From Escherichia coli (GTDB lineage Bacteria > Pseudomonadota > Gammaproteobacteria > Enterobacterales > Enterobacteriaceae): a stretch of DNA of 64,000 nt. The translations under genes and the position numbers were made by a program. The DNA lies in the NCBI RefSeq assembly GCF_001677475.2, contig NZ_CP015229.1. One strand, given 5' to 3'. Each line of letters starts with the position of its first letter. Positions within the stretch are counted from its first letter, which is position 1. The notes beneath the pieces were generated by a model. It saw only the letters and a program-made list of their open reading frames with translations. It ran no database searches and had not been told where the DNA came from. Below, piece by piece: positions 36,867-42,954 of this stretch.

Positions 36867-37757
36867 TTAATACTCGAGAATGCCGTGCGCGACGGGCAAA
36901 TAGCGCAGAGAGAAATAGAGCGTGTCTTTACCGCAAGAGGAACGTTTCGCTAACAGCGAGGCAATTTCTGCATCCGGTTTCGGTTTCGCTGTAAAGGTTT
37001 TGCCTTTGCCGGCGACAAACAGTTCATAAACAATGCCGCTGGCAGGGGCGGAACTCTGGCAATCGGCGCTGGCCTGTAGATAACGTTCACGCTGTTCAGC
37101 GGTAAGTTTATTCACGCCGCTGCCATCCTGTACCCAGACATTAACGCCGGTTGTTTTAACTTGTTCCAGCAGTTGGCGATAGCCATCGGGCGACATGTTT
37201 CCGGCGAAAAAACTACTGATATAAACCGGTTTTGCTGAAACATCGCTAATCAACCGCTGCGCGTTGTTTAACCATGTCAGCAAAGGTTGACGGGCGGCTT
37301 CGCTGCGCCAGTTCAGGTCGTCAATTTCCGCGCTGATGTACCAGCCATCCGGCGTTACGCCAGGCGCGGCGCTCCATAATCTGGCTTGCTGGAGATCGGC
37401 AGCCAGCAGGCGATTAAGATAGCTTTCCAGCGCCGCGGATGACTGTTTCTGGTGCATAAAAAATTCCGGATCGGCATTCAGCCCGACAATCAGCTTCAGG
37501 CCAGCCTGTTGCGCAGCTGCTGCACGCTTAAACAATAACGCGCGCTGTTCTGGCTGGGTGAATGCATCGCCGTAACGGGTCCATTGCAAAACCAGGGTAT
37601 CGAAGCCTTGCAAACGTAACTGACTCATCAGCCCCTGCCACTGGGTATCGGTAACCTGACTATCACGGTTTTGTGGTTGCCAGATAATACCTTTCATCGC
37701 AAAGGAAAAAGGGCTGACCAAAAGCAGTGTCAGCAATACGAAAATGAACTTACGCAT
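36867..37757 (-). CDS. ybcH: Exported protein YbcH (accessory gene of the nfrAB cluster)
   Basis: 296-aa ORF with signal peptide; immediately downstream of nfrA; coordinates taken from the track. Confidence 0.85.
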   Translation of the reverse strand: MRKFIFVLLTLLLVSPFSFAMKGIIWQPQNRDSQVTDTQWQGLMSQLRLQGFDTLVLQWTRYGDAFTQPEQRALLFKRAAAAQQAGLKLIVGLNADPEFFMHQKQSSAALESYLNRLLAADLQQARLWSAAPGVTPDGWYISAEIDDLNWRSEAARQPLLTWLNNAQRLISDVSAKPVYISSFFAGNMSPDGYRQLLEQVKTTGVNVWVQDGSGVNKLTAEQRERYLQASADCQSSAPASGIVYELFVAGKGKTFTAKPKPDAEIASLLAKRSSCGKDTLYFSLRYLPVAHGILEY

Positions 37758-40730: not shown

Positions 40731-42954
40731 TTTCGGACTCCAGTTGCGCAACCTGTTCTGTGTTTAAACCTGCTTTGAGTAATAGTGATTGCATCGAAAC
40801 TTGTAATTCGCGTTGAATTGTCAGGACGCGATCCAACGTTTCCTGGCTGATAACGCCTTCGGTGACCAAAAACTTGCCGAGCGGCAGAGAACTGCGTTCA
40901 TGGCGCAATAACAACACGTTAATTGCTGAACGATTAATATGACCGAGCGTGGTCAGTATTTCGGCGAACAGGAACTGATGCGGCACATATTGCCGCCAGA
41001 TTTCACCGGCCTGCTGTTCCGTGAGCCACTGATGCTGAACCGCATTGTACAACATTGCCCGCGGATCGTGACCGCGTCGGCGTGCATACCAGTGACGTAA
41101 CCCCGTGACAATTTGTCCGCGCAGAACAATGACGTAACGCACTTTGCGTCCGACTTTACGCGTCAGGGCTGCCAGCGAAACCGGGTCAATACCATCTTCA
41201 CTGCCGACAATTAACTCATCATTTTCCAGACGCAGCGGCAGTACTGCATAATGCAGCGCCACGGAAGCCGGCATTTCGGCAATCAGTGATGAAGGGATCT
41301 GCCAGGCGTCGATGGATTCCCACGCCACGCCGTTTTGCTCTGCCAGCGCCTGTGCCAGTTGCTCGGCGCTAATCAGCCCCTGCATCAGCATTGAACCGCC
41401 CAGGCGTAGACCTTCGACGCGATTACGCAGTGCTGTATCGAGTTGTTCTTCAGTGATGACCTGATTTTCCAGCAGAATTTGGCCTAACGGGCGCAACGAG
41501 CGGGTATCGCCAGTCACGCTGGGGAAGTCATGCGTTGTTTTATCCCACGCGACGCGACGTGGATCGCCGTGTTGAAGTACCTGTTTTAACGCGCGCCAGT
41601 TGGCCATGAAGTTAATCAGGTTGCCCCAGAAAAGACGCAGGACAGATAGCAGCCCCTGCGTCAGACCGTAGTAGCCAGTGACAAAAATCACCCGCTGCAC
41701 GATGCGGTTAACCATCAAACCAAAGTTTAGCCACAGCAGGGTCATTAACCATGCGCTGCCGCTGAAAATAGAAAGGAAATGCCAGGCATCGGGCCACAAA
41801 CTTTCATACGCCAGTAACAGCAAAAGCTGGATCATCACCAGCATCGCGAGGAAGCTGACAAAGTTACTGATTGCCCCTTTGCGGTCGCGCCAGAGAAAGT
41901 AGTTCAGCGTCAGGCTGGAGGTCCATTTGTGGGTTTTAAAGCCCTGGAAAACAATGCCGATGATCCAGCGAGATTTTTGTCGAACCGCAGTCGAAAAGGT
42001 ATCGGGGAAATATTCGCGCACGCAGATCATGTTTGACGTCCGCGCGTGCTGTAAAAATTTACGCTGCTCGCGTTCTTTGGCTTCGTCCACCACCGGAAAA
42101 CGGACAAAAATTTCCGTCATACCTTTTTCTTTCAGGCGGAAACCAATGTCGTAATCTTCAGTAAGACTCTGCACGTCGAAAGCAATACCGTCACCGTCAG
42201 CTAACAGTGCGGTCACGGCGCGGCGGCTGAAACAGGTACCGACGCCTGCGCTGGGCACTTGTCCGGCGAGGGCTTCACGCACCGGAACATCTTTGCCATG
42301 CAGTTCTGAAAACTCATCAATGTAAGTCATGCTGGTGAAGTGCGTCCATTCGCGTTCGAACGGATACACCGGGATCTGAATCAGATCTTTACGCTCGACC
42401 AGATAGTTGAACAGACGCAATTCCATCGGTGAAATTACGTCTTCGGCGTCATGCAGAATAAAACCAGCAAAAGCGAAATTGGCGCTACGCTCAAACTGGG
42501 TGATGGCGTCCAGCACGTTGTTCAGGCAGTCGGCTTTGCTGGTGGGGCCAGGACGCGCGCAGACTACCTTATGCACATTCGGGAAGCGAGCGCACACTTC
42601 GTCAACATCACGCTGAGTATCGGGGTCGTTGGGGTAGGTGCCAACAAAGATATGATAGTTTTCGTAGTCGAGCGTGGTCGCCGCCAGCTCGGCCATATTG
42701 CCGATGACGCCCGTTTCATTCCACGCCGGAACCATAATCGCTAACGGTTTTTCATCTGGTTTATACAGTTCGCGGTAACTCATTCTCGGGTAGCGGCGAT
42801 AAACACTCAACTTGCGTTTAATGCGGCGTACCCAGTAGACGACATCAATAAAAAAATCGTCCAGCCCGCTGATGAACATGATGACCGCTAACGTTATCGC
42901 GATTACTTTTAAGCCGTAGAGCCAGGTAGCAAAAACATCAAGAAGCCAGTCCAC
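40717..42954 (-). CDS. nfrB: Inner-membrane family-2 glycosyltransferase, bacteriophage N4 adsorption protein B
   Basis: 745-aa ORF; N-terminal TM helices, GT2 domain, C-terminal regulatory domain. Confidence 0.93.
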   Translation of the reverse strand: MDWLLDVFATWLYGLKVIAITLAVIMFISGLDDFFIDVVYWVRRIKRKLSVYRRYPRMSYRELYKPDEKPLAIMVPAWNETGVIGNMAELAATTLDYENYHIFVGTYPNDPDTQRDVDEVCARFPNVHKVVCARPGPTSKADCLNNVLDAITQFERSANFAFAGFILHDAEDVISPMELRLFNYLVERKDLIQIPVYPFEREWTHFTSMTYIDEFSELHGKDVPVREALAGQVPSAGVGTCFSRRAVTALLADGDGIAFDVQSLTEDYDIGFRLKEKGMTEIFVRFPVVDEAKEREQRKFLQHARTSNMICVREYFPDTFSTAVRQKSRWIIGIVFQGFKTHKWTSSLTLNYFLWRDRKGAISNFVSFLAMLVMIQLLLLLAYESLWPDAWHFLSIFSGSAWLMTLLWLNFGLMVNRIVQRVIFVTGYYGLTQGLLSVLRLFWGNLINFMANWRALKQVLQHGDPRRVAWDKTTHDFPSVTGDTRSLRPLGQILLENQVITEEQLDTALRNRVEGLRLGGSMLMQGLISAEQLAQALAEQNGVAWESIDAWQIPSSLIAEMPASVALHYAVLPLRLENDELIVGSEDGIDPVSLAALTRKVGRKVRYVIVLRGQIVTGLRHWYARRRGHDPRAMLYNAVQHQWLTEQQAGEIWRQYVPHQFLFAEILTTLGHINRSAINVLLLRHERSSLPLGKFLVTEGVISQETLDRVLTIQRELQVSMQSLLLKAGLNTEQVAQLESENEGE

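Follow-up and report, generated by a model that had tools for sequence, protein, structure and literature searches.

The genes nfrB, nfrA and ybcH lie, in the Escherichia coli chromosome considered here, close to the tRNA gene argU, an integration hotspot. This position raises two questions: whether the cluster is the Nfr system known from strain K-12, and how it came to stand beside an attachment site. The analysis covered a stretch of 64 kb (hereafter, the window), for which a sequence-only reading had proposed a phage N4 receptor/exopolysaccharide secretion system in a context different from that of K-12. The evidence points, with a probability of about 95%, to a canonical E. coli nfrBA-ybcH operon, encoding a synthase-dependent exopolysaccharide system, which is found beside argU because the attachment site in that tRNA gene is unoccupied in this strain.

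The nfrBA-ybcH operon and its products

The compact minus-strand unit described in the sequence-only reading was recovered with exactly the same ORF coordinates (Table 1). The genes follow the order nfrB-nfrA-ybcH on a single strand, all three ORFs are full length and none contains internal stops. In the ORF list nfrA opens at a TTG at 40751 (997 aa), whereas the ATG at 40730 yields 990 aa, the K-12 length; with this ATG, the 14-nt overlap between nfrB and nfrA and the abutment of ybcH on the nfrA stop, both claimed beforehand, are borne out, the TAA of nfrA being directly followed by the ATG of ybcH. The same 14-nt overlap has already been described in K-12 (PMC8669469), and its presence in the sequence implies translational coupling of nfrB and nfrA. 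The K-12 operon (b0569-b0567) has the same genes, order, strand, protein lengths (745, 990 and 296 aa), overlap and abutting nfrA/ybcH, and its neighbours cusS and envY are common to both chromosomes. DNA divergence from K-12 is 1.4-2.9% per gene.

Table 1. Features of the argU-nfrB region (positions are those of the 64-kb window)
Feature	Position	Strand	Size or support	Description
argU, tRNA-Arg(UCU), anticodon TCT	35801-35877	+	ARAGORN; Rfam tRNA 72.1 bits	3' part is the DLP12-type attachment core
Attachment core	35834-35879	+	46 nt	Single unoccupied copy (empty attB); duplicated at both DLP12 ends in K-12
envY, AraC-family regulator	35923-36684	-	253 aa; Pfam HTH_AraC/HTH_18	Operon neighbour, not member
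ybcH	36867-37757	-	296 aa	Periplasmic, N-terminally anchored DUF4434 protein; predicted glycoside-hydrolase-type (β/α)8 barrel
nfrA	37758-40730	-	990 aa	Outer-membrane TPR + C-terminal porin-like protein, putative export channel
nfrB	40717-42954	-	745 aa; GTG start as in K-12	Inner-membrane processive GT2 synthase + C-terminal MshEN c-di-GMP receptor domain
nfrB/nfrA coding overlap	40717-40730	-	14 nt, ATGAAGGAGAATAA	Read straight off the sequence
cusS-nfrB intergenic region	42955-43103	-		Carries the nfrBA-ybcH promoter, position within the region not mapped

NfrB had been read as a GT2 glycosyltransferase with a C-terminal regulatory domain, an assignment staked on the detection of GT2 in the 745-aa protein. 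Pfam finds this domain (PF13632, 2.1e-40; PF13641, 3.5e-35) together with a C-terminal MshEN c-di-GMP-binding domain (PF05157, 3.8e-14). Residues 489-540 match the c-di-GMP motif NF053729 (1.4e-18), and sequence comparison relates the MshEN region to the c-di-GMP domains of solved MshE (5htl) and PilF. The complete protein exceeds the equivalog cut-off of NCBIfam NF008411, a c-di-GMP-activated glycosyltransferase (1332.7 bits; cut-off 1170). The signatures of processive glycosyltransferases, with the DxD, TED and QxxRW motifs defined as in PMC8669469, are present as D169 (HDAED), TED 265-267 and QKSRW 326-330, as are L490, G491 and L537, residues shown to matter in MshEN. Every position at which a K-12 mutant plated N4 less well or not at all (D169, D267, W330, L490, G491 and L537) is kept.

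The second protein, NfrA, had been called an outer-membrane TPR protein, and the TPR_19/TPR_14 repeats, the NfrA_C domain (1.4e-67) and a signal-peptide-like N-terminus (...SLLSTSALA/DN) agree with this description. It scores 1888.7 bits over residues 1-990 against NCBIfam NF007302 ("phage receptor"; equivalog cut-off 1223), and is 99.0% identical to K-12 NfrA. Solved structures retrieved by sequence for NfrB, NfrA and YbcH are domain-level relatives only (MshEN and generic TPR), with none for YbcH at E <= 0.1.

The nfr operon was characterised in 2021 as the Nfr or N4 glycan receptor (NGR) system (Junkermeier & Hengge, PMC8669469; Sellner et al., PMC8669472). [quoted passage not shown] The chemistry of the polymer is only postulated in the literature, with UDP-ManNAc as the presumed substrate. 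The earlier assignment to an N4 receptor/exopolysaccharide system is therefore one published for the K-12 proteins, and it extends to a strain whose NfrB is identical to that of K-12 in 745 of 745 residues. Because of this identity, the binding of c-di-GMP by NfrB, and its requirement, may be carried over, and it is by analogy with the K-12 experiments that synthesis of the polymer, activation by c-di-GMP and a receptor role are attributed to the operon here. Thus, binding of c-di-GMP to the C-terminal MshEN domain of NfrB, in the inner membrane, would lead the GT2 domain to polymerise a sugar chain, probably built from UDP-ManNAc made by WecB, which NfrA, by means of its TPR and C-terminal outer-membrane pore domains, would carry across the periplasm and the outer membrane. 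The operon, its domains, the control by c-di-GMP, the role as phage receptor and the 14-nt overlap are already known, and the finding is an ordinary one.

With respect to other synthase-dependent systems (cellulose Bcs, PNAG Pga, alginate Alg and Pel), in which c-di-GMP is received via PilZ (BcsA), the PgaCD interface or PelD, Nfr differs in having MshEN fused to the synthase and in its presumed use of UDP-ManNAc. Moreover, YbcH belongs to DUF4434, whereas those systems have GH8, GH153, GH39 and GH166.

Some strains carry a disrupted nfrB or dgcJ (Sellner et al., PMC8669472), and the partner genes wecB, dgcJ and pdeL lie outside the 64-kb window, so that the operon, although present, could have decayed or been silenced here, as it has in E. 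coli B strains, and so be inactive. The full-length reading frames argue against such a state, as does the nfrB gene, which differs from that of K-12 at 31 nucleotides and at no amino acid, a pattern that indicates strong purifying selection. Pseudogenisation is ruled out by the intact ORFs and the identity of NfrB to its K-12 counterpart. The regulatory region upstream points in the same direction, all 149 positions between cusS and nfrB being identical to K-12, where the nfrB promoter is activated by FliA/FlhDC and repressed by RpoS (PMC8669469). An inactive operon is consequently improbable. Within the region upstream of nfrB, a sigma-70 consensus scan gave 0 matches (6 overall, versus 6.2 in shuffled sequence) and inspection by eye gave no convincing sigma-28 consensus; a consensus scan for the operon terminator returned terminator-like matches that were mostly intragenic, and no position was assigned.

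The argU junction and the origin of the arrangement

The tRNA gene, preceded by a promoter-like TTGACT-16-TATAAT at 35742-35769, is the sole RNA found between 35 and 43 kb in a scan of the whole window at Rfam gathering thresholds. It is separated by 989 nt from the stop codon of ybcH, in accordance with the distance of about 1 kb given in the sequence-only reading. The gap is filled by envY, which that reading had not mentioned; its stop codon is only 45 nt from argU, its product is 99.6% identical to K-12 EnvY, and the gene is annotated in K-12 and in strain 19KM1831.

In K-12 the cryptic lambdoid prophage DLP12 (564755-586056) uses the same argU and an identical 46-nt core. This 21.3-kb element (intD ... 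appY, ompT), inserted between argU and envY, accounts for the only difference between the two loci, the distance to argU. In the alignment, the window follows the K-12 attL on the left and the K-12 attR on the right, joined across one core, which was found once in the 64 kb with 3 mismatches allowed. The prophage, intD, the second core, appY and ompT are all absent, and neither an integrase nor a second core, the marks of an occupied site at argU, was detected within the window. The previous statement that the context differs from K-12 is thus factually right, but it was over-read, since the cluster has not moved and it is K-12 that holds an insertion. As a result of the empty site, no chromosomal ompT or appY is present at the argU locus.

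The proximity to an integration hotspot, together with a GC content of 0.51-0.57, somewhat above that of the sfm/fimZ side (0.42-0.50), could be taken to mean that the nfrBA-ybcH cluster is itself the cargo of a mobile island targeting argU. The comparison across strains that had been recommended speaks strongly against this, the cluster being present at >= 80% coverage in 5048 of 5426 complete E. coli genomes (93%), at one place in each. In addition, the cusRS flanks are conserved, the K-12 cluster is separated from the prophage by the DLP12 boundary at attR, and the window is collinear with other E. coli through all 64 kb. Taking into account this wide presence, the position beyond the prophage and the absence of integrase and repeats, a mobile island at argU is ruled out, leaving cargo origin with hardly any probability.

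The canonical operon beside an empty site is, moreover, not peculiar to this strain. The argU-envY junction is contiguous in 2531 of the 5426 complete genomes, about half, the argU-adjacent context being the commonest single state in E. coli, and strains 19KM1831 and 18KM2445 share the annotated gene order fimZ-argU-envY-ybcH-nfrA-nfrB-cusS.

The stretch from argU to nfrA is about 99.7% identical to a few E. coli strains, against about 97.7% for its flanks; for the nfr cluster, identity reaches 99% or more in roughly 80 genomes. Compared with strain 18KM2445, the interval of about 35.6-40.0 kb shows 15 differences in 4.4 kb (0.34%), against about 2.3% in the flanks (25 in the 1.1 kb just to the left; 95.5-98.4% identity in 2-kb bins elsewhere). 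This distribution of differences suggests a recombination tract. The argU-nfrA segment may thus have been swapped in, and phages acting on the receptor locus could have provided the selection. In three-way comparisons the site patterns are star-like and not dominated by changes private to the window, so that its placement as an outgroup to E. coli is unsupported. An exact 44-mer with 8 lineage-private variants had no match among the GTDB species representatives, whereas the draft assembly GCA_019142445.1, reached through an exact match to the CusS protein, is identical at 7442 of 7443 positions.

From the same contrast in divergence it could be argued that the juxtaposition of argU and nfr is secondary, the lineage having once had a DLP12-like prophage/ompT island at argU, which either excised precisely or disappeared when homologous recombination replaced argU-nfrA by the "empty" allele of a different strain. 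The low-divergence tract starts about 0.2 kb before argU, which is what an import spanning the attachment site would be expected to show, and more than half of the complete genomes have an occupied or rearranged site, which points to frequent gain and loss. However, a clean single core without scar fits a site that was never occupied just as well as one precisely vacated. This history is accordingly possible, though we hold it to be doubtful, and the operon and its function would be unchanged either way.

YbcH as a candidate glycoside hydrolase

YbcH has been called a "putative scaffold protein" in the K-12 literature, and is dispensable for N4 infection (PMC8669469). Deletion of ybcH has a partial motility-suppression phenotype. 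The protein of this strain, 97.6% identical to K-12 YbcH, matches DUF4434 (PF14488) at 1.1e-68 over positions 1-282 of 283 and scores 520.4 bits against NCBIfam NF007404, above the equivalog cut-off of 344. Its predicted structure (pLDDT 95.9) is a (β/α)8 barrel of the glycoside-hydrolase TIM-barrel type, and its structural neighbours in Foldseek are glycoside-hydrolase TIM barrels, with modest TM-scores (0.4-0.56) and some non-hydrolase TIM barrels in the list. Pfam gives no link between YbcH and named glycoside hydrolase families even at E <= 10, and the connection to hydrolases is drawn from the fold. As a candidate catalytic pair, two glutamates stand out. Across 62 homologs (25-47% identity), E144 and E245 do not vary, and in the model they close strands 138-146 and 241-245, which are the barrel's 4th and 7th. 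A very distant relative by sequence, in another genomic context, is BT_0435 of Bacteroides thetaiotaomicron (PDB 4h41, "putative alpha-L-fucosidase"), for which, to our knowledge, no activity has been demonstrated.

YbcH is an accessory periplasmic protein, and from this model we infer that it may act as the glycoside hydrolase of the Nfr system rather than as a passive scaffold. More specifically, it could be a dedicated periplasmic hydrolase with a clan GH-A-like ("4/7") DUF4434 barrel and E144/E245 as catalytic residues, trimming or clearing a ManNAc-based polymer; we put this forward tentatively, at slightly short of even odds.

Taking into account the intact operon and the NfrB identical to that of K-12, the strain is predicted to be able to display the NGR glycan. 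Given intact dgcJ and wecB, sensitivity to N4, Vequintavirinae and phi92-like phages could follow. For the Nfr component whose role is least clear, the fold of YbcH provides a concrete and cheap hypothesis. If it is true, YbcH would be the first member of a new glycoside hydrolase family and would offer a means of cutting the N4 glycan receptor, which is still undefined, and of solving its structure in this way.

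The nfr operon and its products

The nfrB, nfrA and ybcH genes, which in K-12 form an exopolysaccharide system that also serves as the phage N4 receptor, appear in the ORF list at the positions and on the strand proposed in the sequence-only reading. When nfrA is started at the ATG at 40730, its product is 990 aa long, as is K-12 NfrA, and the gene therefore overlaps nfrB by 14 nt (ATGAAGGAGAATAA), an overlap already described in K-12 as 14 bp (PMC8669469). The ybcH ATG is found immediately 3' of the nfrA TAA; both this junction and the overlap, as previously claimed, are read in the sequence.

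Coordinates of the features discussed
Feature	Position	Strand	Details
AgrB	1100-1190	+	Rfam, 50.3 bits
Short unaligned stretch vs strain 18KM2445	3959-4054		
Short unaligned stretch vs strain 18KM2445	14182-14311		
STnc480 sRNA	14308-14374		Rfam, 87.6 bits; adjoins the preceding stretch
argU, tRNA-Arg(TCT)	35801-35877	+	ARAGORN and Rfam
envY, AraC-family regulator	35923-36684	-	Pfam; 99.6% identity to K-12 EnvY
ybcH	36867-37757	-	296 aa, ATG start (ORF list)
nfrA, first-TTG version	37758-40751	-	997 aa (ORF list)
nfrB	40717-42954	-	745 aa, GTG start (ORF list)
Variant cluster in cusS	44337-44376		Eight window-private variants in 40 nt
sok antitoxin RNA, copy 1	57326-57481	+	Rfam
sok antitoxin RNA, copy 2	57829-57985	+	Rfam

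A Pfam search found in NfrB both the GT2 domain (PF13632, 2.1e-40; PF13641, 3.5e-35) and the C-terminal regulatory domain that had been postulated, an MshEN domain (PF05157, 3.8e-14); NfrA, correctly described as a TPR protein, contains TPR repeats and NfrA_C (1.4e-67), and YbcH corresponds to DUF4434 (1.1e-68). The three proteins pass the cut-offs of their NCBIfam equivalogs: NF008411 for NfrB (1332.7 bits vs 1170), NF007302 for NfrA (1888.7 vs 1223) and NF007404 for YbcH (520.4 vs 344). NfrA and YbcH are 99.0% and 97.6% identical to the K-12 MG1655 proteins. NfrB is identical at 745/745 positions, while its gene differs by 1.4% in DNA, the changes being synonymous without exception, and this indicates that nfrB is under strong purifying selection. 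The 149-nt cusS-nfrB intergenic region, which must hold the operon promoter, is the same as in K-12 throughout. D169, TED265-267 and QKSRW326-330 are kept in the GT domain, as are L490, G491 and L537 in MshEN, and every residue whose mutation lost or lowered N4 plating in K-12 is present.

In K-12, the C-terminal domain of NfrB has a Kd of about 1 µM for c-di-GMP (Junkermeier & Hengge 2021, PMC8669469). The same work showed that N4 infection depends on the GT active site as well as on the residues that bind c-di-GMP, that wecB, the source of UDP-ManNAc, is required while the remaining ECA pathway is dispensable, that DgcJ interacts specifically with NfrB, and that the operon is activated by FliA/FlhDC and expressed post-exponentially (PMC8669469). 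Sellner et al. 2021 (PMC8669472) reached the same model, naming the structure N4 glycan receptor (NGR), which is conserved in E. coli, functional in uropathogenic UTI89 and exploited by Vequintavirinae and phi92-like phages too. What the window shows directly is the set of genes, with their domains and motifs; by analogy with K-12, NfrB would carry out a polymerisation activated by c-di-GMP, NfrA would export the polymer, YbcH would play an accessory role, and the resulting surface glycan would be the phage receptor. The equivalog matches and the K-12 work thus support the receptor/exopolysaccharide interpretation, and the operon is an already known system.

An empty attachment site at argU

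The cluster had been placed within about 1 kb of argU, and the distance from argU to the end of ybcH is indeed 989 nt; however, the gap is filled by envY, omitted from that description, with only 45 nt between argU and envY. In K-12, the cryptic prophage DLP12 is annotated between these two genes (564755-586056; 21.3 kb), extending from intD through appY and ompT. Aligned to the K-12 junctions, the window shows the attL side on the left and the attR side on the right with one 46-nt core between them. A search of the 64 kb with up to 3 mismatches finds a single copy of this core, which consists of the 3' part of argU, and there is no integrase ORF. Thus, argU is an unoccupied attachment site here. 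The window therefore lacks appY and ompT, and with the latter an OmpT protease gene at the argU locus; neither gene is annotated in the collinear stretch of 18KM2445.

A 501-nt junction query, scored as contiguous at >=80% coverage in one place, was contiguous in 2531 of 5426 complete E. coli genomes and split in the remainder, bearing out argU as a frequent integration site. Some split genomes match by the envY-side half only (about 63-64%), a sign that the site is occupied. About 1100 match on the argU side only (90-95%), and probably have ompT abutting ybcH without envY, an arrangement already reported (PMC6854850). An 8.3-kb query gave 3927 genomes, an over-count, since only about 12% of that query lies on the argU side. 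Across strains, the nfr cluster is present at >=80% coverage in 5048/5426 genomes, with a median of one place per genome; argU is therefore busy but the cluster has not moved. The order fimZ-argU-envY-ybcH-nfrA-nfrB-cusS is also annotated in 19KM1831 and 18KM2445. The context does differ from K-12 in the lack of DLP12, but it is an ordinary empty site and the commonest single state among complete E. coli genomes, K-12 being the genome that carries an insert.

Relatives and possible recombination

Of the 5426 complete genomes, the best match to the window flanks has only about 97.7% identity, and this lineage is not represented among them. It does exist in public draft genomes, since ABBDOW010000002.1 (GCA_019142445.1) is identical to 40104-47546 at 7442/7443 positions.

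The window is collinear with 18KM2445 along all 64 kb, with only two breaks, namely the short unaligned stretches tabulated above. In 2-kb bins, identity is 99.05-99.8% at 36-42 kb and 95.5-98.4% in all others. There are 25 differences in 1.1 kb (about 2.3%) at 34.5-35.6 kb, 15 in 4.4 kb (0.34%) at 35.6-40.0 kb and about 42 in 3.2 kb (about 1.3%) at 40.0-43.2 kb; argU-envY-ybcH-nfrA (35600-40000) differs from 18KM2445/19KM1831 by about 0.3%, vs about 2.3% in the remaining collinear window. In three-way comparisons with K-12, the site patterns of the flanks are star-like, and within the tract nearly all have the window and 18KM2445 sharing a base that differs from K-12. The simplest reading would be a homologous-recombination tract from just upstream of argU through nfrA, which might have co-carried the empty argU site.

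Close by, divergence is highest in cusS and cusR (96.0% and 96.9% DNA identity to K-12). The cusS variants, private relative to K-12, 18KM2445 and 19KM1831, suggest a small mosaic or gene-conversion patch; a 44-mer carrying eight private variants had no match in GTDB species representatives. Elsewhere, the two tandem sok copies represent a pair of neighbouring hokE/sokE type I toxin-antitoxin loci spaced by about 500 nt, with about 96.5% identity to the 18KM2445 pair, where two hokE are annotated. AgrB is the antisense RNA belonging to the dinQ type I toxin locus; in 18KM2445, the equivalent position between mnmH and ybbP has an annotated dinQ, and the Rfam family description places dinQ/agrB in the arsR-gor region.

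YbcH as a candidate periplasmic hydrolase

YbcH is annotated in K-12 as an "auxiliary component" and has been described as a periplasmic "putative scaffold protein" (PMC8669469). A search gave 459 diverse representatives at E <=0.001, and the alignment of 62 of these homologs has seven invariant columns, including E144 and E245. The AlphaFold2 model built on it is confident (pLDDT 95.9, pTM 0.92) and contains eight strands alternating with helices. The predicted fold is a glycoside-hydrolase-type (β/α)8 barrel in which E144 ends strand four (138-146) and E245 ends strand seven (241-245). Clan GH-A is characterised by two invariant Glu, on β4 and β7. Among the structural neighbours of YbcH is the hydrolase domain of PgaB. 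Foldseek returned neighbours of the same kind, with modest TM-scores and some other TIM barrels also listed. By sequence, the family profile matches 4h41 (E 8.8e-4), the structure of the very distant relative BT_0435 from Bacteroides thetaiotaomicron ('putative alpha-L-fucosidase'), with GWY..EI over E144.

From the fold and these glutamates we infer that YbcH may be the periplasmic hydrolase of the Nfr system, in a role similar to those of BcsZ, PslG and the PgaB C-terminal domain in their own systems. N4 infection proceeds without YbcH, and the motility effect depends only partly on it (PMC8669469); such a modulatory, non-essential phenotype fits a hydrolase role. In the literature collection searched, no paper on DUF4434 function was found. 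In sum, what had been observed from the sequence is confirmed and its interpretation supported, but the finding was already known and holds little of interest beyond this proposal, the only forward-looking one, that YbcH would act as a hydrolase, which can be tested.
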